Of a stretch of DNA of 64,000 bases, positions 5,726-44,769 are shown piece by piece. The notes beneath the pieces are model-generated. The model had not been told where the DNA came from. It saw only the letters and a list, made by a program, of their open reading frames with translations, and did no database searches. Made by a program: the position numbers and the translations under genes. This DNA comes from Acidobacteriota bacterium (GTDB taxonomy: Bacteria > Acidobacteriota > UBA6911 > RPQK01 > JAJDTT01), in assembly GCA_965219855.1 (NCBI GenBank), contig CBDCOR010000022.1:835826-899825 (forward strand), in the 5' to 3' direction. Within the stretch, counting starts at the first letter, position 1; every line of letters starts with the position of its first letter.

Positions 5726-5807
5726 GGCGAGAGGCTTCAAGTTTCTTTCTCGAATGGGGCAGCCCGGCTGGGGCGCGACTAAGCCGAAACAAAATCGGCA
5801 AGAGTCG

Positions 5808-7634
5808 CTACGCCCTCAAATCGTCCGCGAGTTCCTCGGCTTCACGGATCAGATCCTCGGTAAATGACAAGCCCTGGTTCCAGAGCTCGGGATCGTCCAG
5901 GTTCACGCCCAGCTTACCTATCATCGCCTGGGGCCAGTCCGATCCGCCTGCCCCCAAGAGTTCCAGGTACTCTTCCGCAAAGTTCTCTCGTTCTTGCTGA
6001 CGATAGAGTGCCAGGACCAGCAGCTTGCCGAAGGCGTAGGCATAGACGTAGCCCGGCGTGTGAATGAAGTGGGGAATGTAGCTCCACCAGATTCTATAGT
6101 GATCCTTGAGCGTCACGCTGCCCTGGAACATCTCCTCCTGCGTCTCTATCCAGAATTGACTCAAGCGGTCGACGGGAAGTTCCCCTTCCTGGCGTCGAGC
6201 CGTGTGAATTTTCGCCTCAAACCGATGCATCGCTACCTGGCGAAATACGGTGGCAATCGTGTCATCGATGCTTCCCACCAGGATCGAAAGCCGGACCTTG
6301 GGGTCACGCTCCGCCTTCATCAGGTGATCGAAGACCAGCATCTCTCCGAACACAGAGGCAGTTTCCGATGTGGTCAGGGGAGGTCGCGACTGGAGATAGC
6401 CTTGTTTCTGGGAGAGGTACTGATGGACGCCGTGGCCCAGCTCGTGGGCGAGGGTTTGAATGTCCCTTATGTTTCCACTGTAGTTCATGAGAATGTAAGG
6501 ATGAACCGTGGTCACCGCGGGGTGGCTGAAGGCTCCGCTGGATTTACCGGGTCCGGGGGGCGCATCGATCCAACGCTTCTCAAAGAACTCGAGTGCAATT
6601 TCCCCCATTCGGGGATGGAATGCGTTGTACGCCTCGAGAACTATTGCCCGGGCCTGTTCCCAGGTACGGAAGGTAGCTGCGGCTCCCACCGGAGCGTAAC
6701 GGTCGTAATCGTAAAGTTCGTCCAGGCCGAGGAGGGTGCGTTTGAGGCGGTAGAATCGAGCTACCAGATCGTAGCGGCGTGCTACCGAGTCCACCAGGAC
6801 CTCGACCGCCTCATCGGAGATTTCATTATCCAGATTGCGACTCCTCAACCAATTCGGGTAGCGACGGAGCCGGTCGTCGCTGGCCTTGTCTGCCAAGGTG
6901 ACGTTGAAGACAAAGGACATCTCGCGAAGCCGGGTTTTCAGACCTTTCGTAAAGGCCAGGGCAGCACGTCGACGAACGCCGCGCTCAGCTTGGTACAGAC
7001 GGGCGAGAGTCTCCTGCTGCGTCAAGTTGCGTTTGTTCAAAACGAATCGGGTGGCACCCGCTGCCTCGTCGAAAAAGCGGCTCCACGCCGTCTGGCCTGT
7101 GATGGTCTTCTCGGTAAGGATCTTCTCTTCGGCTTCGCTCAGCACATGGGGCTTACGCTGCCGTTCCAATTCGAGGTAGTGTCGGAAGCGGCTCAGCTCG
7201 GAGCTGACCAGGAGTCGTTGGGCCGTGTCGTCATCCGTCGCGACCCACTCCAGCTCGAAGAAGAGTACCTTCTGGATGATCTCGGTGTAGGCCTCTCGAG
7301 TCCTTTGCAGGAGAGCCCCTCGTTCTGGGCTCTCGGTAGCTATGCACCAATCGAGATAGGCATAAGACATAACGCCGCCCAGACGCAGCAGGAGGTTCTC
7401 AAACTCCTGGAGTGCTTGGAACAGGTCCTGAGGGCCAAGCGTTGCCACCCTTCCTCGGAAGCGATCCTCGAAAGAAGCCGCTTCCTCCCTAGCCCGCTCC
7501 AGATCCTTATCCAGTGAGTCCAGATCGGGGTGCAAATCCGCAAGATTCCAGCGAGCCCTCTCGGCCCCGGTTTGCCGGTCCTCGGCCCCCGCGGACGGAG
7601 ATTCCTTCTGCTCTGGTAACCTGAGGAATCGCAA
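5808..7634 (-). CDS. pepF: M3-family oligoendopeptidase F.
   Basis: 608 aa with a HELGHGVH zinc-binding HEXXH motif. The length and architecture are typical of M3B. Confidence 0.85.
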   Translation of the reverse strand: MRFLRLPEQKESPSAGAEDRQTGAERARWNLADLHPDLDSLDKDLERAREEAASFEDRFRGRVATLGPQDLFQALQEFENLLLRLGGVMSYAYLDWCIATESPERGALLQRTREAYTEIIQKVLFFELEWVATDDDTAQRLLVSSELSRFRHYLELERQRKPHVLSEAEEKILTEKTITGQTAWSRFFDEAAGATRFVLNKRNLTQQETLARLYQAERGVRRRAALAFTKGLKTRLREMSFVFNVTLADKASDDRLRRYPNWLRSRNLDNEISDEAVEVLVDSVARRYDLVARFYRLKRTLLGLDELYDYDRYAPVGAAATFRTWEQARAIVLEAYNAFHPRMGEIALEFFEKRWIDAPPGPGKSSGAFSHPAVTTVHPYILMNYSGNIRDIQTLAHELGHGVHQYLSQKQGYLQSRPPLTTSETASVFGEMLVFDHLMKAERDPKVRLSILVGSIDDTIATVFRQVAMHRFEAKIHTARRQEGELPVDRLSQFWIETQEEMFQGSVTLKDHYRIWWSYIPHFIHTPGYVYAYAFGKLLVLALYRQQERENFAEEYLELLGAGGSDWPQAMIGKLGVNLDDPELWNQGLSFTEDLIREAEELADDLRA

Positions 7635-33335: not shown

Positions 33336-34574
33336 ATGCTATGCTGCACATGCATGGATACGCTGACCGAATTGACGGAGAAATTCCGCTCTGTATGGCC
33401 CCTGTTGGATGAACGAACGCGGCGGATTATGGCGGCCAGTGAAGCGAGAGCGTTGGGCCATGGCGGAGTCAGTTTGGTACGCCGTGCCTGCGGACTGTCG
33501 CGCAAGGCAATCGCTAAAGGAATCCGTGAAATCGAAGAGGGTTTCGTGCCCATGGAAGGCCGCATCCGGCGGCCCGGAGCCGGAGGCAAGCCCCTGACGG
33601 TTTCGGACCCGGGGCTGGTGGAGCAATTGGAAGAAATGAGCGAGGTCCAAACTCGGGGTGACCCGGAGTCTCCGTTGCGTTGGATTTGCAAGAGCACGCG
33701 GGCCATCGCGAAAGAACTGGCCCGGCACAAACACCCGGTCAGTCATACGAAGGTGGCGCAGATCCTTCACGACCTCGACTACAGTCTGCAGAGCAATCGG
33801 AAGACCGAGGAAGGGAAAGATCATCCGGACCGCGACGCCCAGTTTCGGCACATCAGCGCCACCGTCAGACACTGCCTGAGGGAAGGCAGTCCGGTCATTT
33901 CCGTGGATACCAAGAAGAAAGAACTCATCGGCAACTACGACAACGCGGGCCAGCAATGGCTTCCCGCCGGGCAGCCGATCAAGGTTCAGGGTCATGACTT
34001 TCCCACTCCCGACGTTCCCCGTGCCTATCCTTACGGCGTTTATGACATTGGGCGCAATACCGGCTTTGTCAATGTCGGCACCGATCACGACACGGGAGCG
34101 TTTGCGGTCGCCTCCATTCGCGGCTGGTGGCGCCAGGAAGGGAGACGGATCTATCCGAATGCAAGAACGATACTGATCACCGCCGACGCCGGCGGGAGCA
34201 ACGGTTGGCGGTTGCGCCTTTGGAAATTTGAGTTGCAGAAGTTCGCAGACGAAACGGGCCTCCCGGCTTCGGTCTGTCATTTTCCACCCGGCACCAGCAA
34301 ATGGAACAAGATCGAACACCGCCTCTTTTCTTTCATCTCTTCGAACTGGCGCGGCGAACCTTTACGAGACTACGAAACAATTGTTCAACTCATCGCGAAG
34401 ACAACGACAGCTAAAGGACTCAAAGTGACGTGCCGGCTAGATCGTCGCAAGTATCCCACTGGACGCAAAGTCTCCAATGAAGAAATGAAGCGAATCCAGA
34501 TGCGGCCCAACCCGTTATTTCGCAAGTTGCACCATGAACTTAACAACCGCGCGGGGTGTAAAAAACTGCCCTAA
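33336..34574 (+). CDS. ISAzo13-type (Rhodopirellula-type DDE) transposase, apparently 3'-truncated.
   Basis: The N-terminus LTEKFRSVWPLLDERTRRIMAASEARALGHGGVSLVRRACGLSRKAIAKG matches ISAzo13-family transposases. The C-terminal 22 aa read through an antisense RM-gene fragment, so no family-typical C-terminus is expected. Confidence 0.65.
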   Translation: MLCCTCMDTLTELTEKFRSVWPLLDERTRRIMAASEARALGHGGVSLVRRACGLSRKAIAKGIREIEEGFVPMEGRIRRPGAGGKPLTVSDPGLVEQLEEMSEVQTRGDPESPLRWICKSTRAIAKELARHKHPVSHTKVAQILHDLDYSLQSNRKTEEGKDHPDRDAQFRHISATVRHCLREGSPVISVDTKKKELIGNYDNAGQQWLPAGQPIKVQGHDFPTPDVPRAYPYGVYDIGRNTGFVNVGTDHDTGAFAVASIRGWWRQEGRRIYPNARTILITADAGGSNGWRLRLWKFELQKFADETGLPASVCHFPPGTSKWNKIEHRLFSFISSNWRGEPLRDYETIVQLIAKTTTAKGLKVTCRLDRRKYPTGRKVSNEEMKRIQMRPNPLFRKLHHELNNRAGCKKLP

Positions 34575-36444: not shown

Positions 36445-38401
36445 CCGAAGTTACCCTGAAAACTAGCTGAAAAACAACCTGTAAGCCATTGTGGATCATC
36501 AGGTAAGGGTCTTTTTGTATTCGACAATCTGTACCCATGTAATAGTTGGTTTAGTGTCCTTTATTGTCGGTAGTATGTGATATTATAGTGCCCATGTACA
36601 TCGAATCCGTTCCCAACCGCAACTCGCCCCCGGCCATTCTCCTGCGCGAGTCCTACCGGCAAGCCGGCAAGGTGCGCAAGCGCACTCTGGCTAACCTCAG
36701 CAAGTGGCCCGCGGAGATCGTCGAAGGCCTGCGCAGCCTCTTGAAGGGAGGCTCCGTCATCTCCGACTTGAGCCAAGCCTTCCAGGTCCAGCGCACTCGC
36801 CCCCATGGTCATGTGGCGGCCGTCTTGGGTACCCTGCGCCGCCTCGGTTTGGAGCGCTTACTGGCCACTCGCAACAGCCTGCAGCGCCGCCTGGTAGTGG
36901 CCCTGATCGTGGCGCGCATCCTGGAGCCCCGCTCCAAGCTGGCCACCGCACGCGGATGGGATCCCCAGACCCTGTCCAGCAGCTTGGGCGAGCTCTTACA
37001 GGTGGAGGCCGCGACGGCCGATGATCTGTACGGCGCCTTGGACTGGCTGCTCGTTCGACAACCAAAGATTGAAAACCAGCTGGCGGCTCAGCGCCTGCAG
37101 GACGGTTGCCTCGTGATCTACGACGTCACCTCGACCTACTTCGAAGGGAGGAGTTGCCCGTTGGCCCAGCGGGGGTATTCCCGAGACGGCAAAGGGGGTA
37201 CGCTGCAGATCGTCTTCGGCCTGCTGTGCGAAAGGCTGCCCCGTCGCGGTCGAGGTCTTCGAAGGCAACCGAGCGGACCCCACAACAGTGACCAGCCAAA
37301 TCCAAAAACTGCGCCAACGCTTCGGGTTGCGCTCGGTGGTGGTGGTCGCCGATCGAGGAATGCTGACGGAAGCCCGCATTCGGGAGGAGCTCAAGCCGCT
37401 GCCCGGCATGGGCTGGATCACGGCCCTGCGAGGCCCTCAGATCCGCAAACTGTTTCAATCCGGTCCGCTGCAGCTGTCCCTGTTTGATCAACGCGACCTG
37501 GCCGAGATCCAGAGCCCGGACTACCCCGGGGAACGGCTCATTGTCTGCCGTAATCCCCTCTTAGCGGAGGAACGGGCCCGCAATCGCCAGCAACTGCTCC
37601 AGGCGACCGAGCTGGAGTTGGAGAAGATTGTCCAGGCAACGCAACGTCCGAAGCGTCGCTTCAAGGGCAAGGATCGGATTGCCCTGCGGGTGGGCAAAGT
37701 CCTCAACCGCTACAAAGTGGGCAAGCATTTTGTCCTGGAGATCGGCGAGGAGTCCTTCTCCTACCAGCGCCGGCAGGAGCGCATCGAGCAGGAGGCGGCA
37801 CTGGACGGGATCTATGTGATTCGCACCAACCTGGCCCGCGAGCAAATGGATGCCGAACAAACGGTGGCTGCCTACAAGGGGTTGTCCGTCGCCGAACGGG
37901 CCTTCCGCAGCTGTAAGAGTGTCGATCTGAAGGTCCGACCCATTTACCACCATCTGGAGGATCGGGTCCGCGCTCACGTCTTTCTGTGCATGCTTGCCTA
38001 CTACGTCGAGTGGCACATGCGACAGAAGTTAGCTCCGATCCTGTTCGACGACGAGGATCCCGAGGCGGGGAGGCAGCTTCGCGATTCGGTGGTGGCACCC
38101 TCTCAGCGCTCTCCTCAGGCCCTCCGCAAGGCTCACCGCAAGCGCACCGTTGAGGGTGGGCCCGTGCACAGCTTTCAGACCTTGCTCAGCGATTTGGCCA
38201 CGATCTCCAAAAACCGGATTCAGCCGCAGTTGCCCGGCTCAGCAGCCTTCGACAAAATCACCCGTCCCACATCGCTTCAGCAGCGAGCCCTGGATCTCCT
38301 CGGCGTTCGTCTATAATGTACCCAGTACCGACGCAGCTGATTTGTAGCATTACCCCAATCTTAACAATAGGTTACATCACTTTTCTACGAGGTAACTTAG
38401 G
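36445..38401 (+). mobile_element. IS1634-family insertion sequence, copy 2, about 99% identical to copy 1.
   Basis: It has the same terminal inverted repeats as copy 1. 1957 bp. No clean target duplication (flanks GCTAAG / ATTAAC). Confidence 0.85.
36564..38316 (+). pseudogene. IS1634-family transposase disrupted by a frameshift.
   Basis: Copy 1 reads GACCGTCAAGGCTGCCCTGTC where copy 2 reads GAAAGGCTGCCCCGTC (5 nt shorter). This splits the ORF into 36564-37487 and 37288-38316. Confidence 0.8.
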
Positions 38402-38769
38402 ATTAACAGTTCGTCGTACATGAAGCGTCCGGACCAGCGGCTGTCCTCGCCTGTTTTTGAAATCCATCTTGAGAAGATATTGGTTCCGGTCAACGCTTAT
38501 TGAGGACGAGCTGGTGTGGTTGAAGCCTCGTGAGGGGTCGGTGTTGGGATCCGGATAGAAGGGCAGCAGCTTGAGAGCAACCGGATTGAGGCGCTCCGCA
38601 GGAATCGTGTTGTTGGGAAGATTCTCTCCGGTCAAAGGATCGAGAATCGCTTCCGAGAATCTCCCCGCTCTTTCTTCGCCTGTGGGTACGTTTCCCGTGA
38701 AGGAAAGGAAGCGGCGAATCCGCTCCCCACTGTAGGAGCCGAACCACCAGGCCTTGTCCTTGCCCTGTC
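38402..38769 (-). pseudogene. Internal fragment of an Oar-like TonB-dependent receptor, cut at its 3' side by IS1634 copy 2.
   Basis: The frame reads ...GRFSEAILDPLTGENLPNNTIPAERLNPVALKLLPFYPDPNTDPSRGFNHTSS... and runs directly into the IS right end. Confidence 0.45.
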
Positions 38770-39140
38770 CGCTCCACCGAGACGGGAATCATGTGGAGGT
38801 TCAGGAGCCGGTCCAGACGATAGGCCGCGATGTTGTACTTGTAGGAGTCCCGGAAGTTGACCTCCATTCCCCGAGCCGTGGCATAGGAGGACTTCGACAC
38901 GTCGACCGACTGGATGCTGGCGTCGTGAGTGTAACTTCGATCGGAAAACGTGGCCCGCTTGGTCCCGGTCACACCCGTGTGGACCTTCTTCATCTTCATC
39001 ACCTCTGCCCTTATCAGGAATGATTCCTTGTCGGCGTCCGACCAGTTGGAAAGAGGAGCGGGACTCTCCTGTGACCACACCTGGGATGAAGAAACGAACA
39101 GAGTAAAGGCCAACAAGGGGGCAGCACATCTGCCTCCCAT
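38770..39140 (-). pseudogene. N-terminal fragment (signal peptide plus about 100 aa) of a paralog of the secreted kinase-like protein at 40371-41216.
   Basis: SNWSDADKESFLIRAEVMKMKKVHTGVTGTKRATFSDRSYTHDASIQSVDVSKSSYATARGMEVNFRDSYKYNIAAYRLDRLLNLHMIPVSVE aligns with the intact paralog. Homology ends abruptly at 38770. Confidence 0.5.
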
Positions 39141-40370
39141 TGACGTTCTCCTGGACGCCGAGCGAGGGCGCTTCGCATTGGGTGGAGACAGGTTGGGGAA
39201 GCCGGTCGCGTTCAGATCAAAGGCAGAAATGAAATGTTGCATGAGATTGACCTCCTGGGTCCGTGTTTGTGTGCTCAATAGCGACGGATTTCAGGTCCAC
39301 AAACTACAGACACGATCGAACCTTCATTGGGCCGGTACACTGGGACAGGTTCGAGGGCTGACGCGTCGGCGGCGGCAATCCCCACAACTTCTTTTCACCT
39401 AGGCCCTGGCTACGGCCTGTTCCTGATCCTGGCGCAGTCCTTGGCCAGCAGCTCGGGATTTTCCGTGTTGTGAGTCTGCCGGCAAGTTTCGACAGTTCCT
39501 TTCTCTAGCTGGAACATCCGATCATTCGATTCTCCGTTCCAATCCGCCAGCTAGTCCGCGGGGGCTCGAGTGTAGAGGTAGAGCGATATCACCCAGCCTA
39601 GCAGCCTCGCCTAGCTGCGCTATGAAATTCATGCGAAGACTCAAGAGTAGACATCCCACTTCGCCCTTGTGAGCCAACGCAGTGCAGAATCTCTATCCTC
39701 AGTGGCTGAAACGCAAGAGCCATGCCAAAGTCTTCGAGGCTAATCCTCCTCTTTCAGATCTCGCGTAACTTGTTCACCGAAAAGGAGAAGCCCACTTATA
39801 GTTGGAATTGGCTATGTCACGGAGGAGGGACGAGAGGGCTGGAGTGTTATCCCTTTGGATAGTTCGATTATCCAATCGGATAGTCCCGCCATCTTGGGAA
39901 TCGCTCGATGCGGCCGAGGTATGCCGTATATAAGCCACTTGGACGTATCGCCCCTGCCGCAGAAGTGCCCTGGGTCTAGAAGGCACCTCCAGAGCGGCGT
40001 GACAGAGTCGCTCGATTTGCTGCCAGCGCTCAGATTTCATGGCCCCCAGGCTTGCAGCAGTTGGCTAGTTTCCTGTGTCGAAACGCTCGCCATTGGGGCC
40101 TCCTCGCAGCAATTGCAGCCCAGTTTAGCACCCTCCGGTTGTCCCCCTAGCCCGCGCCAAAGCTTTGCGTGGGAATGATAGTTCGTCGGCAAGGATTGCG
40201 TTTTGACCATTGAGGACATCTGTGAGAGTCTATGAAAAAGATGCCCAGAAGAGCTGCTCCCTCGAGGAAAACAGCCGCTTTTTTCCCTCTGGGAATCCAG
40301 AAGTGTGTGGGATAGCCGCTTCGGCGATCTCTACAGCTGCCACTGTTGGATTAAATCAGGAGGTAAGCAA

Positions 40371-41216
40371 ATGCTCAAGAAATCGACCGTAATGTTTGCC
40401 TATTGGTTCCTGCTTGTCTCTTCTCCCCCCCTGTGGTCGCAGCCGCCACCCTCCACCCTTTCGGCCACCTGGTCTGACGCCGAGAAGGAGACGTTTCTGC
40501 TCAGGGCAAAAGTGGTCAAGATCCAGAAGGTCCCCATCGGTGTCACCGGGACGCGGCGAGCCACCCTTTCCGACGGACAGCAAACCCACGACGCCAGCGT
40601 CCAGTCGATCGACGTCTTTAAAGAGAAATTCACTACGCCCCGGGGCAAGGAGCTGAATTTCCGGGATAGCTACAAGTACAACATCGCCGCCTACCGCCTG
40701 GACCGACTCCTGAATCTGCACATGATTCTGGTCTCGGTCAAGCGCAAGATCAAAAGGAAGAGGGCCGCGCTTACCTGGTGGGTCGACCGGGTCAAAATGA
40801 TGGAGAAGGCACGCTTCGAGCAGAAGATCTCAGCTCCGAACCTAGCCCAATGGAACGATAAGATGTACCAGGTCCGGATCTTCAACGAACTCGTCTACAA
40901 CACGGATCCGAACATGGGGAATCTGCTCATTACCGAAGACTGGAAGCTGGTGATGATCGACTTCACCCGGGCCTTTCGATGGCACAAGGAGCTGAGGTCC
41001 CCCGAGAACCTGAACAACTGCAAACTGGACCGGAGGTTCTACGATGGGATGCGGCAGCTGAACCGGGAGGTTGTGAAGCGACGTGTGGACGGCGCACTGA
41101 CGAATAATGAGATCAAGGGAGTCATGGCCCGGCGAGAGAAGATACTGAAACACTTCGATGAGCAGATTGCCAAGCGAGGTGAATTGGCCGTGCTCTGCAG
41201 CCTGCCGGGGCATTAA
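40371..41216 (+). CDS. Secreted protein with a PI3K/PI4K-type (type II PI4K-like) atypical kinase fold.
   Basis: Strong SD (GGAGG) 7 nt upstream of the ATG. Sec signal peptide MLKKSTVMFAYWFLLVSSPPLWSQ. The catalytic-loop-like NTDPNMGNLLI resembles NTDRHxxNxLI and is followed 17 aa later by MIDFTRAF, an IDFG-like motif. Confidence 0.55.
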   Translation: MLKKSTVMFAYWFLLVSSPPLWSQPPPSTLSATWSDAEKETFLLRAKVVKIQKVPIGVTGTRRATLSDGQQTHDASVQSIDVFKEKFTTPRGKELNFRDSYKYNIAAYRLDRLLNLHMILVSVKRKIKRKRAALTWWVDRVKMMEKARFEQKISAPNLAQWNDKMYQVRIFNELVYNTDPNMGNLLITEDWKLVMIDFTRAFRWHKELRSPENLNNCKLDRRFYDGMRQLNREVVKRRVDGALTNNEIKGVMARREKILKHFDEQIAKRGELAVLCSLPGH

Positions 41217-41883
41217 ACCGTTCAAGACAAACTCCCATCCATCCGCCCGAGATCGACTGATACCCGTCCCCGCGCTCTTCCATTCTATTAGTCTCGACCT
41301 ATTGTTCCGACAGAACGACTGAAGCGAGGAGCGCGCGCGAAGTCGCATGACCGCTTGGTCTGCGCGGAATGACTGCTCTTGGCGTGCGCCGTGCAAAGGC
41401 GGCGCTTTCCCAGTGGGTGAAAGTCCCACCCGGCAACTGCTCCAGCCGGAAGCAACCGGAGCAACTAGGGAGGTAGCGAAATGGTTGAAGCCTCGGGTGA
41501 AGCGTGTCACGAATTGGTGACAGCGCGAGTGTGCAGTGCCCTTCTCTCGCCTAGACATCTGAGTTTAGCTGTCAAGGACTATTATTCACAGGGTCTCTTC
41601 CGCGGGGACTGTTTCCCCTGGGAATCCTGACCTCTTCAACAGACCATTTCCCTGGAAAGACGGACTTCCCGGGTGTAGCCTAGTGAACTGCAGCATTGCG
41701 AAGCCGAGTCCGGCAGAGCCGCGAACGATCTGATGTGTCGGCAACATGAGCCCAAGTTCCGGCCGTCGAAGACGACGAAGGCAGGAGAGAGCTGGACAAC
41801 AACAGAATCTCCCTCTCCCCGACCGAAGTTTCTTCCAGGTACGATCCGGCGCAGCCGGGGGCGGGGCTGACCCAAACTAGAGG

Positions 41884-43044
41884 ATGTCCGCTAACATCAT
41901 GCACCATCGGGCCTCGACCAAGCTCACAGCAACGGCAGCGCTGACCCTGTTGGCCCTTTCGCTCGCCTCGGATCCAGCAGGAGCGGCCGATGTCAGGTCC
42001 TGGACTACGTCGAGCTTCCTGGACCTGGTCGACGGACGCTTCAGTGACGGGGGAGTAAACACCTATGTCACGGCAACCGGCGAAGTAGTGCTGATCAATC
42101 GCAGGGACTTGAACGGCGATGGCAGCATCGACCTCGTACTTCCCAACGAACACGATTCCAACGAAAGGCCGGACCTGTTGATCTACTGGGGAGGCGACCG
42201 CTTCTCGTCCCAACGTCGGATGCAGCTCCCGACGAATGGCGGGAACGATGGAGCCGTGTCCGATCTCAACCAGGACGGCTTCCCCGATCTGATCGTGGCC
42301 AACAACTTCAATGGCACCAGGACCGACCTGGACTCCTACATCTATTGGGGAGGCCACAGGGGGCTGGACGCCTCCAGGCGGAGCGGACTTCCCACCCGAG
42401 GCGCCCAGGCCGTGGCAGTAGGCGATCTGAACCAGGACGGCCATCCCGACATCGCCTTCGCCAACAGCGGCCTTGGCTATCATGTCACAGTGGATCGCGC
42501 TAACCAGTCCTTCGTTTATTGGGGATCCTCCGGAGGCTACTCGCCGGACCGCAGGATGGTGCTCAGGACCATCAATAGTCGAGACGTGAGAATAGCGGAC
42601 TTGAACGGAGACGAGTATCCCGAGCTGATCTTCGCCAACGAGGGGAACACCGATGAGGAGGCCGGGGCACTTATCTACTGGGGTGGGGCCTCCGGAGATC
42701 ATACCGAGCGCCCCAGCACTCACCTGCCTGGGGAACGGACGTCAGCCTTGACCGTGACCGACCTGAACGGGGACGGCTTTCCAGAAATCGTGCTGGCCAA
42801 TGCCTATCGCTTGAAGACCAGAGAACTGGGTATGTACAACACGGTCGAAACGGTGTCCGTGAACTCCTACGTCTACTGGGGATCCAGACAGGGTTACTCG
42901 GTCGAAGCGAGGACATCGCTCCCGACCGTTGGAGCCTCCGACGTCGAGGCTTCCGACCTCAATCGGGATGGCCAACCCGACCTCGTCTTCGCCAACCGCT
43001 CAGGCAACGTATCCTATATCTATTGGGCCTCGAGCGAAGGTTAG
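41884..43044 (+). CDS. FG-GAP / ASPIC-type beta-propeller repeat protein, N-terminal part, ending at an in-frame TAG.
   Basis: Signal-like N-terminus. Repeats follow the pattern YIYWGGxxGFSxxRRxxLPTxGAxxVAVxDLNxDGxPD. Confidence 0.7.
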   Translation: MSANIMHHRASTKLTATAALTLLALSLASDPAGAADVRSWTTSSFLDLVDGRFSDGGVNTYVTATGEVVLINRRDLNGDGSIDLVLPNEHDSNERPDLLIYWGGDRFSSQRRMQLPTNGGNDGAVSDLNQDGFPDLIVANNFNGTRTDLDSYIYWGGHRGLDASRRSGLPTRGAQAVAVGDLNQDGHPDIAFANSGLGYHVTVDRANQSFVYWGSSGGYSPDRRMVLRTINSRDVRIADLNGDEYPELIFANEGNTDEEAGALIYWGGASGDHTERPSTHLPGERTSALTVTDLNGDGFPEIVLANAYRLKTRELGMYNTVETVSVNSYVYWGSRQGYSVEARTSLPTVGASDVEASDLNRDGQPDLVFANRSGNVSYIYWASSEG

Positions 43045-43065: not shown

Positions 43066-44769
43066 TTGCCTACCCGCAACCCTACCAGCTGCAGCGTCGG
43101 GGATGTGGATCAAGATGGGTACCCCGACCTGGCCTTCGCCCAGCGATGGGCGGCCCAATACCAGAGCTCAAAGGCCTATCTCTACTGGGGAGGAGAGGAC
43201 GGTTTCAGTCCCGAGCGGAGGTCCGAACTACCCACCTCGGACGCAACCGGGGTCCAGACGGGCGACTTGAATGGAGACGGGGCCACGGATCTTGTCTTCA
43301 TCCATGCTGCCGACACCAACCTTCCCACCCCAAGCTATATCTACTGGGGTGACCAGGACGGTAGGTTCGAAGCCAGCCGACGCAAGGCGTTGCCCAGCGG
43401 CTACGGCTTCTGCTCCAGCGCCGATCTCAACCAGGACGGTCACGTGGACCTGCTCTTTGGGGCAATCCCTGACGACCGAAATGGCGCCGGAATCTATTGG
43501 GGCTATCGTGGAAGGTATTCATCGTGCGACCGCAGCAGTCTAGGGGACGTGCCAGTCTTCGGGTCCCGGGCCGCCGATTTCAACCGGGACGGCTACCTGG
43601 ACGTTTCTCTGGGCCTGTTTGCACCCGGCAGAGCCTCATCGACCGAGATCTACTGGGGCGGCCCCTCCGGATTCTCAAGCGAGAACCGTTTCGTGTCCGG
43701 GGTTGGCGGTATCCGCGGTCACGCCCTCGGAGATCTGAACCGCGACGATTGGCTGGACATCATCTTCAGCACGACCAACAACCAGGTCGTCATCTACTGG
43801 AACAGTGCTTTAGGTTTTGACAAAGACCACACCAGTACCCTGCCTGCAAGAGCCTCCGTTTCCGTCGAAGTGGCAGATCTTAATGGAGACGGTTTCCTGG
43901 AGATCATCGTCGCCAACCTCTTCGACAGCGATCCCGCTCCTGACAAGGCCCAGTCTTTTGGGGGATCTCCTCAAGGAGACACGTTTGTTTACTGGGGCGG
44001 AGGCAAGGGGTATGAGGCGTCCCGCAGGACGGTCCTTCCTTCGGTGGGAAACGCCGACGTGGCAGTGGCGGATTTAAACAACAACGGTCTGCTCGACATG
44101 GTCCTCAGCAGCTACCACGCCGGCTACACCCGGAGCCATCCTTCCACCATCTACTGGAACAGTAGCTCCGGGTTCGATGTCTCCCGGGCTACCCAGTTGC
44201 CCACCAACTCGGCCTCAGGCGTCTATGTCAGTGACTTCGACAGAAACGGTCACGCCGACATCTTTTTCGCCTGTCACTCCAAAGCGGGCAAGCACCGCAA
44301 CGATTCCTTCTTGTATTGGGGAAGCGAGGCTGGATTTTCGACCGAGCGCAGGACCCTCCTGCCGGGTCTGGGTCCCCATCAACTGACCTCGGACGTAGGC
44401 CATATCTACGATCGGGGGGATCGCTACGACTACATCTCGCCGCCCTTCGATACGGGTTCGAAGGCTCGCCTGGAGAGCATCAGTTGGAAGGGAGACACAC
44501 CCTTCGAGACGGGACTGGAGTTTCAGGTCCGCTGGGCCGACTCGAAGGAAGCACTGGTCTCGACTCCCTGGAGGGGACCGAGCGGGCTCCAGAGCTTCTA
44601 TACCGTCTCGGGGAGCAGTCTGGCCCAGGAAGAAGTCGAGGTGCGCTGGATCCAGTACAAGGCGACTCTCGTCAGCCCTGGATCGGCCAGCTCGCCGGTT
44701 CTGAAATCGGTGTCCATCCACTACTTTCCTAGCGGTGGGGATGTTTTTCGCGATCAACGCTTCGAATAG
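43066..44769 (+). CDS. FG-GAP repeat protein continuing in the same frame as 41884-43044.
   Basis: The same repeat unit continues across the TAG (…IYWASSEG * RPYKRSALPTRNPTSCSVGDVDQDGYPDLAFA…). The C-terminal 150 aa form a non-repeat domain. Confidence 0.7.
   Translation: MPTRNPTSCSVGDVDQDGYPDLAFAQRWAAQYQSSKAYLYWGGEDGFSPERRSELPTSDATGVQTGDLNGDGATDLVFIHAADTNLPTPSYIYWGDQDGRFEASRRKALPSGYGFCSSADLNQDGHVDLLFGAIPDDRNGAGIYWGYRGRYSSCDRSSLGDVPVFGSRAADFNRDGYLDVSLGLFAPGRASSTEIYWGGPSGFSSENRFVSGVGGIRGHALGDLNRDDWLDIIFSTTNNQVVIYWNSALGFDKDHTSTLPARASVSVEVADLNGDGFLEIIVANLFDSDPAPDKAQSFGGSPQGDTFVYWGGGKGYEASRRTVLPSVGNADVAVADLNNNGLLDMVLSSYHAGYTRSHPSTIYWNSSSGFDVSRATQLPTNSASGVYVSDFDRNGHADIFFACHSKAGKHRNDSFLYWGSEAGFSTERRTLLPGLGPHQLTSDVGHIYDRGDRYDYISPPFDTGSKARLESISWKGDTPFETGLEFQVRWADSKEALVSTPWRGPSGLQSFYTVSGSSLAQEEVEVRWIQYKATLVSPGSASSPVLKSVSIHYFPSGGDVFRDQRFE

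Follow-up and report, generated by a model that had tools for sequence, protein, structure and literature searches.

The window analysed here is a stretch of 64,000 nucleotides from an Acidobacteriota bacterium (contig CBDCOR010000022.1, positions 835,826 to 899,825 of the forward strand). It carries an intact gene for an exported protein of 281 amino acids (aa) with a kinase-like fold, and a decayed second copy of this gene on the opposite strand (Table 1). An earlier note on the sequence had proposed a secreted protein with a PI3K/PI4K-type atypical kinase fold, and its reading of an intact open reading frame (ORF) behind a strong Shine-Dalgarno sequence is borne out. Relatives are denoted below by locus labels (L and a number, for genomic or metagenomic loci) and protein labels (P and a number, for members of the family). 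At the ortholog locus L001, positions 5774-6853 match window positions 40141-41223 at 90.8% (blastn), which corresponds to the gene and 230 nt upstream. No homology to L001 was found by blastn beyond 40141 or 41223, and a scan around the gene revealed no sigma-70-like promoter or terminator. The ratio dN/dS is 0.25 when the gene is compared with the 90%-identical L001 ortholog, indicating that it is subject to purifying selection. No plasmid match for the gene was obtained by tblastn. The window copy is a lone, intact and constrained paralog, one of several per genome.

Table 1. Features in and around the gene for the exported Fam20-like protein (window coordinates).
Feature	Position	Strand	Basis or remark
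Intact ISAZ013-family transposase	33336..34574	+	E 4e-130
Insertion sequence (IS)-type DDE transposase, two overlapping ORFs (frameshift or pseudogene)	36564..38316	+	Pfam DDE_Tnp_1, E 7e-8
TonB-dependent-receptor-like outer-membrane barrel fragment	38459..38764	-	Pfam OMP_b-brl_4, E 1e-10
Decayed paralog, signal peptide and N-lobe only, about 125 codons	38768..39140	-	
Upstream region, likely promoter and 5' untranslated region	40141..40370	+	conserved with ortholog locus L001
Shine-Dalgarno sequence AGGAGG	40358..40363	+	7 nt before ATG, read from sequence
Intact gene, 281 aa, exported Fam20-like kinase-fold protein, HQN clade	40371..41216	+	
Predicted Sec signal peptide, residues 1-23	40371..40439	+	sequence features
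Strand beta3, H73-D-A-S-V-Q78, Gln78 in place of the ATP-binding Lys	40587..40604	+	HMMER alignments
Asn104 of helix alphaC, in place of the Glu of Fam20 AEIAAF	40680..40682	+	HMMER alignments
Catalytic loop N177-TDPNMGNLL-I187	40899..40931	+	HMMER alignments to Polo-like kinase and Fam20A/C
I196-D197-F198, DFG equivalent	40956..40964	+	HMMER alignments to Fam20A/C
Group II intron 5' fragment, D1-D4	41411..41555	+	Rfam RF02003, 71 bits, E ~1e-13

The signal peptide recognised in the earlier note has a conventional layout. The N-terminus, MLKKSTVMFAYWFLLVSSPPLWS, precedes QPPP and contains two Lys residues and a hydrophobic core of 13-14 residues, with likely cleavage after LWS23; residues 1-30 have a pLDDT (model confidence) below 50 in the structure model. 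Relatives were assessed by a heuristic test, namely a hydrophobic N-terminal stretch with preceding K/R. By this test, 87-94% of 214 full-length relatives possess the hydrophobic stretch, 92% have at least one K/R ahead of it, and twin-arginine-like motifs (e.g., RREFLK) are found in 27. Two kinds of fusion protein are informative about topology. In P0142, P0170 and P0178, a cytoplasmic Hanks-type Pkinase domain is followed by a transmembrane segment and then by a C-terminal outer domain of the type found here (HQN type, see below), and in P0165, P0207, P0214, P0245 and P0265 the domain follows a signal-peptide-bearing phosphoesterase. Based on the signal peptides and on the topology of these fusions, the domain is predicted to be extracytoplasmic throughout the family.

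The catalytic residues of the kinase fold are in place. Within the loop NTDPNMGNLLI (residues 177-187), in which the earlier note saw a retained catalytic Asp, D179 falls on the Asp of NMDRHH, the catalytic residue in Fam20, as well as on the HRD Asp of kinases, and N184 occupies the position of the metal-binding Asn. The IDF motif follows at the spacing given in the earlier note (residues 196-198, with I196 17 residues past D179), and its D197, the DFG-like Asp, aligns with the Asp of LDNGRGF in Fam20A/C. In alignments to Plk1 the same three residues coincide with the Asp of HRD, with the Asn and with the Asp of DFG, respectively. Conservation was counted from 361 aligned family domain rows: D179 is kept in 339 of 347 rows, N184 in 338 of 346, and D197 in 343 of 344. 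Such conservation (about 99%), together with the low dN/dS of the gene, argues that the motifs are not a product of chance. Near-universal too are Arg63, which is R or K in 306 rows, Arg125 and Arg200, the last two being common to Fam20.

The N-lobe is different. The lysine that the earlier note proposed to look for there is missing, its position being taken by Gln78, which corresponds to the lysine of the Fam20 FKPM motif (Lys271 of Fam20C in our own numbering; the role of this lysine is described in PMC5413348), and the Glu position of helix alphaC is Asn104. The H-Q-N triad (His73, Gln78, Asn104) is found in 293 of the 361 rows, and His73 is invariant in this clade (HQN clade). The canonical ion pair, K or R combined with E or D, is present in about two dozen distant members. 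The clean covariation indicates that the ancestral Lys-Glu pair has been replaced as a unit. The HQN clade also has a characteristic tail, C276-x-x-P-G-H281 (window 41196-41216), of the form ..V-(L/I)-C-x-x-P-G-H-stop, in which C276, G280 and H281 are at least 90% conserved; K/E-type relatives do not have this tail.

Homologs of the protein number 1,913 in a set of 5.8 billion proteins, all of them labelled "hypothetical", and with a profile of homologs the count is 3,392 cluster representatives (50% clustering). A scan of one genome per species yielded 79 loci, almost all in metagenome-assembled genomes (MAGs) of Acidobacteriota. The hosts belong to the Bryobacterales, Terriglobia, Thermoanaerobaculia, Blastocatellia and Vicinamibacterales, commonly with several copies per genome, and seem to be environmental members of the phylum for which only MAGs are available. 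Adjacent pairs of kinase-like genes, tandem or divergent, occur at L072, L033, L037, L039 and L020. Pfam and NCBIfam hold no model for the family, and no description of an exported Fam20-like bacterial family was found in the literature searched.

The relationship to Fam20 was established with profiles; a single-protein phmmer search against PDB sequences gave no match. The profile of the main family (A1) matches FAM20A at E 1.2e-4. A second profile, built from 17 distant K/E-type members (A2) and compared with 177,635 sequences of the PDB up to an E-value of 1, matches solely Fam20 chains: FAM20A (1.6e-11), DrFam20C (5.6e-7), human FAM20C (5.7e-6), Hydra Fam20 (7e-6) and C. elegans Fam20 (2e-3). 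The two profiles match each other at E 4.9e-87. The alignments of A2 with Fam20 are colinear through beta3 (AxFK in the family, ALFKPM in Fam20), the segment from alphaC to beta4 (family pattern AAYxLDxLLxLxxVPxxVxR), the catalytic loop (NxDRN versus NMDRHH) and the metal loop (IDHxRxF versus LDNGRGF), and continue into C-terminal helices. The window protein does not match the Pfam Fam20C model (PF06702); one family member, P0121, scores 29.4 bits against its cut-off of 26.8 and is also above the cut-off of HipA_2. For FAM198/GASK1 (PF15051), the N-lobe of the window protein gives E 1.8e-3, which is below threshold, and 18 of 102 members match. These sequence comparisons support homology to Fam20, not membership of the curated PF06702 family. 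In one kinome survey the animal secretory-pathway kinases FAM20, FAM198 and Fjx1 were among the eukaryote- or Metazoa-specific clusters (PMC9758233).

Structure modelling led to the same relative. The model is bilobal, as the kinase fold proposed in the earlier note would predict, with an N-lobe beta-sheet and helix alphaC and a C-lobe carrying the catalytic and metal-binding loops, and its closest structural neighbour is Fam20. Other kinases follow with scores of 16.9 (PI4KIIalpha), 14.6 (CtkA), 11.9 (actin-fragmin kinase), about 11.5 (HipA) and 10.7 (CotH), and PI3K, PIKK, RIO and Hanks kinases are below 10; the ranking did not change with an earlier, weaker model. Sequence and structure thus agree on Fam20 as nearest relative. 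The kinase fold of the earlier note therefore stands, but its PI3K/PI4K label pointed to the right neighbourhood and not to the closest kin: the protein has no match to Pfam PI3_PI4_kinase (PF00454) even at E up to 10. Among K/E-type relatives, 7 of 17 match PF00454 below its cut-off of 27.1 bits (best E 6e-6), and matches below threshold to PI3_PI4_kinase and HipA_2 occur among some distant members. We conclude that the family consists of bacterial homologs of Fam20, the kinases of the metazoan secretory pathway, within the Fam20/PI4KII/CtkA/HipA branch of the kinase fold, and that PI4KII, on this branch as well, is less closely related. Fold, homology and export, taken together, can be regarded as highly probable.

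The Fam20 family comprises the Golgi casein kinase Fam20C, the xylosylkinase Fam20B and the pseudokinase Fam20A. Fam20 and, by prediction, the bacterial protein are both extracytosolic behind a signal sequence, and Fam20 is the only PDB family reached by the A2 profile. The shared motifs are xAxFK, (E)IAAY/F-x-LDR-x-L...VPP/VSV-x-R, the N-x-D-R/P loop, (L/I)D-x-x-R-x-F and the C-terminal helices, and the HQN clade resembles Fam20A in being without the alphaC Glu. The mature bacterial protein is smaller, however, with about 255 residues compared to 350-580 in Fam20, and the Fam20-specific N-terminal segment and insertions are absent from it; having only two Cys residues (C217, C276), it cannot form the Fam20 disulfide pattern (PMC5413348). 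It also has Gln for the beta3 Lys, and Asn184 where Fam20 has Glu (DRHHYE). The N-T-D-x-x-x-x-N loop resembles that of PI4KIIalpha (NTDRGNDN), and the DFG-like Asp is another point of likeness. By contrast, the protein does not match PF00454, the family profiles reach no PI4K chain, the beta3 Lys is absent, and the protein is exported whereas PI4KIIalpha is a cytosolic, palmitoylated membrane protein. CtkA, the proinflammatory kinase of Helicobacter pylori (JHP0940), shows no detectable sequence similarity here and is host-directed and of another lineage. HipA toxins are cytoplasmic and paired with an antitoxin, and no HipB/HipS context is seen here.

Two other assignments were considered and rejected. 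Membership of ABC1/UbiB fails because the catalytic loop alone matches: ABC1 (PF03109) scores 25.9 bits against a cut-off of 22.9, with residues 123-204 (82 residues) lying on profile positions 135-217 of 244, and is matched by 52 of 102 members, while the UbiB equivalog scores 17.3 bits versus 487. Single-sequence comparison with NCBIfam gave faint matches to SCO1664, UbiB and Kdo-kinase. The SEAE1 "PIK-like" family, described in a 2026 survey of novel kinase-like families in bacteria, is not the same family either; it is cytoplasmic, found mostly in Bacteroidota, and keeps the Lys (preprint 10.64898/2026.09.18.752743).

The genomic context of relatives was determined by calling ORFs in the 79 loci and clustering them. 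A secreted Metallophos gene is adjacent in 14 loci, and a gene for a 920-aa protein combining TLC (the ATP/ADP transporter family) with HEAT repeats (TLC+HEAT) in 12; gene orders and orientations vary, and several acidobacterial classes are represented. Both partners belong to known families. The Metallophos neighbour matches the cold-active protein-tyrosine phosphatase of Shewanella (1V73/2Z72, E 3e-36), the prototype of the Shelph group (Shewanella-like) of PPP phosphatases (PMC535813). The carrier neighbour matches the chloroplast ADP,ATP carrier NTT1 (E 8e-14) and is one of the NTT-HEAT fusions, a group with a wide distribution among free-living bacteria and an uncharacterised function (PMC5381601). 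For two of the fusions between Metallophos and the kinase-like domain, P0214 and P0265, a TLC-HEAT gene comes next within 100 nt, and L002, a paralog in a related MAG, has a TLC-HEAT gene 1.8 kb upstream. An independent metagenome set was scanned for the K/R-E clade and gave 80 loci, 32 of which have at least 5 kb of flank; among these 32, TLC/NTT-HEAT is present in 9, Metallophos in 10, and both in 7. Since NTT-HEAT genes are few per genome, their linkage to the kinase-like gene is far above chance, with the proviso that the loci are not phylogenetically independent. No link of NTT-HEAT or Shelph to a Fam20-like exported domain was found in literature searches aimed at these partner families or in PMC5381601 and PMC535813.

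The three genes (kinase-like, Shelph and NTT-HEAT) recur as a module whose gene order differs between loci and of which fused versions exist, at L032, L038, L061, L063, L068, L070, L073, L074, L079, L080-L083, L087, L088, L097, L101, L102, L104 and L136. In apparent operons, two small secreted proteins without a Pfam or NCBIfam family flank the kinase-like gene, one of about 164 aa upstream and one of about 236 aa downstream (cluster c10 at L012, L013, L015, L021, L022, L030, L034 and L041; cluster c13 at L012, L013, L015, L018, L023, L043 and L064), and a GAF/sigma-54 activator is often found upstream. These two proteins are candidate partners or substrates.

The best reading of the sequence evidence, to which we assign a probability of roughly 0.5, is that the protein may be an extracytoplasmic phosphotransferase. 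A small, Sec-exported, single-domain protein would work in the periplasm or envelope on proteins or glycans. Asp179 would serve as the base, Asn184 and Asp197 would hold the metal-nucleotide, and His73, Gln78 and Arg63 would contact the phosphates in place of the missing Lys. Where the module is complete, the NTT-HEAT protein would swap cytoplasmic ATP for periplasmic ADP and so feed the enzyme, and the Shelph phosphatase would reverse the modification. Fam20 in the Golgi is likewise fed by ATP import, and at a membrane that is negative inside, electrogenic ATP4-/ADP3- exchange is biased towards export of ATP, as it is in mitochondria. Supply of ATP by the carrier is a more tentative suggestion than the enzymatic activity itself. 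More doubtful still is the scheme in its full extent, in which Acidobacteria and other environmental bacteria would practise reversible extracytoplasmic phosphorylation with a Fam20-like kinase, a Shelph phosphatase and an ATP-exporting NTT-HEAT carrier, and the family would be sister to the animal kinases Fam20/FAM198/Fjx1 on the prokaryotic side and perhaps their origin.

Several observations weigh against a phosphotransferase supplied in this manner. The bacterial periplasm is not known to have ATP available. The carrier or the phosphatase is present at no more than about 15-30% of loci and most have neither, 3 of the 5 fused proteins checked are without a TLC neighbour, and both an NTT-HEAT carrier and a Shelph phosphatase are absent from the 64-kb window. 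The HQN clade is missing both the ATP-anchoring Lys and its Glu partner, and a change of this Glu to Gln is the pseudokinase signature of Fam20A (PMC5413348). Finally, NTT-HEAT carriers, a group described as uncharacterised (PMC5381601), are not known to export ATP.

In the main rival reading, the protein would be a pseudokinase or ligand sensor that binds a nucleotide, a phospho-ligand or a partner without catalysis, acting allosterically as Fam20A does for Fam20C. Its partners would then be receptor Ser/Thr kinases, ECF (extracytoplasmic function) or sigma-54 signalling proteins, or the Shelph phosphatase. The combined change of Lys to Gln78 and Glu to Asn104 parallels the substitution in Fam20A (PMC5413348), and the HQN-type domain is the outer C-terminal part of the Hanks-type kinases P0142, P0170 and P0178. 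Of the 79 loci, 24 have an adjoining Ser/Thr kinase gene, 7 an ECF sigma gene and 11 a sigma-54 activator, although Ser/Thr kinases are very numerous in these genomes and part of this adjacency may be due to chance. Tat-type signals in some members would suit export of a pre-folded, ligand-loaded protein. However, both clades retain the catalytic Asp, the Asn and the DFG-like Asp at a level of about 99%, which is unusual for a dead kinase; the fixed, covarying triad with its invariant His73 looks re-engineered rather than decayed; and the phosphatase and carrier context is common to HQN-type and K/E-type members. We consider a sensor without catalysis unlikely.

A kinase of the PI4K type, in keeping with the earlier note, might instead act on non-protein substrates of the envelope, such as lipids, sugars of lipopolysaccharide or exopolysaccharide, glycans, small molecules, or antibiotics and other xenobiotics. 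Fam20B is itself a xylose kinase. The weak PF00454 matches among K/E-type relatives and the TonB-dependent-receptor-like genes downstream in about 8 loci are compatible with such a role, but neither the Pfam model matches the protein nor do the family profiles match any PI4K chain. Moreover, the recurrent partner is related to a protein-tyrosine phosphatase, the fusion partners include protein kinases, and lipid- or sugar-metabolism genes do not recur nearby in the 79 loci, making phosphorylation of non-protein substrates quite improbable. Less probable again is a kinase fold with other chemistry, i.e. AMPylation, glutamylation or use of a non-ATP phosphate donor, with the altered N-lobe re-orienting or replacing the nucleotide. 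SelO (AMPylation) and SidJ (glutamylation) are kinase-fold enzymes with such activities, and loss of the Lys-Glu pair while Asp, Asn and Asp are kept, as well as the clade-specific tail ending in H281, might be accommodated in this way; the partnership with a phosphatase fits phosphorylation best. The suggestion of the earlier note that the protein could be an effector was rejected, as no secretion-system context was seen and the hosts appear to be environmental.

The decayed paralog, which the earlier note had correctly placed on the opposite strand, shares 67% aa identity with the intact copy over 114 aa. It lies in an ORF at 38490-39278 and has a signal peptide of its own after its true start, a Met at 39140. 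Its DNA is 92% identical to the ortholog at L003, in another Acidobacteriota MAG, over window positions 38758-39423. In a base-by-base alignment the homology collapses at about 38768, just past ...IPVSVER (codon ~125), and the catalytic C-lobe is wholly deleted. At this breakpoint the truncated gene is joined out of frame to the receptor barrel fragment, which by blastx corresponds to residues ~314-444 of receptors encoded downstream of kinase-like genes in L061-L063. In several related genomes the kinase-like gene is followed by an intact TonB-dependent-receptor-like gene. Based on this pairing, the decayed copy is the remnant of a kinase-like and receptor gene pair after deletion and IS insertion. 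The barrel fragment abuts the IS-type transposase, an intact ISAZ013-family transposase lies at 33336-34574, and the region is rich in IS elements.

On the other side of the intact gene, the group II intron fragment begins 195 nt past the stop codon, where synteny with L001 ends. As there is no D5/D6 match and no reverse-transcriptase ORF before the next gene, this piece is probably an intron remnant. Downstream of it lie two adjacent genes for FG-GAP/VCBS-repeat proteins (41884-43044 and 43066-44769, both on the plus strand), the first with a signal-peptide-like hydrophobic N-terminus; no link of FG-GAP proteins to the kinase-like gene was seen in other genomes. Upstream of the gene, 18 codons at 39987-40040 on the minus strand, MKSERWQQIERLCHAALE, resemble the N-termini of neighbouring Ser/Thr kinases in L011, L019, L020 and L041. 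The match is weak (E 0.08-0.4), and the stretch may be what is left of a divergent kinase gene. For remains of an ECF sigma gene in the upstream region, no match was obtained. Antisense ORFs overlap the gene at 40842-41558 and 40356-40721. In 56 of the 79 loci this shadow ORF is again present on the strand opposite the gene; it is thus a by-product of coding-strand composition, not a gene.

In MAG CBDCLS01, the loci L004-L006 have identical match statistics (68% identity, E 2e-120), and in each of them a PQQ-propeller gene neighbours the kinase-like gene, with relative coordinates that agree; two of the three are at contig ends. These statistics and coordinates suggest a repeated segment in this MAG. 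The contig-end copies, together with synteny that ends at the borders of the gene and the flanking IS elements and intron piece, raised the question of whether a mobile element carries the gene as cargo. This was rejected, because no repeats or element ends bracket the gene, and evidence of this kind suggests rearrangement only.

To our knowledge, Fam20-type phosphorylation in the extracellular or luminal space has been treated as an animal innovation, and the bacterial periplasm has generally been assumed to be without ATP and kinases. The gene described here represents a very large, unnamed family of exported bacterial proteins that are homologous to Fam20 and whose relatives are repeatedly linked to homologs of protein phosphatases and of ATP/ADP carriers. 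What emerges is an exported Fam20-like branch in bacteria whose N-lobe is re-engineered and whose partnership with a carrier and a phosphatase is suggestive. If the phosphotransferase reading is correct, phosphorylation in the bacterial envelope would be established and the delivery of ATP to this compartment explained, the NTT-HEAT carriers of free-living bacteria would gain a role, and the evolutionary origin of secretory-pathway kinases would be seen in a new light. The occurrence of Gln, Asn and His in place of Lys and Glu, with the catalytic residues intact, is a natural test of what a kinase requires of its N-lobe. If, instead, the protein is a pseudokinase sensor, it would represent a novel type of input domain through which Ser/Thr kinases of bacteria are served from outside the cytoplasm.

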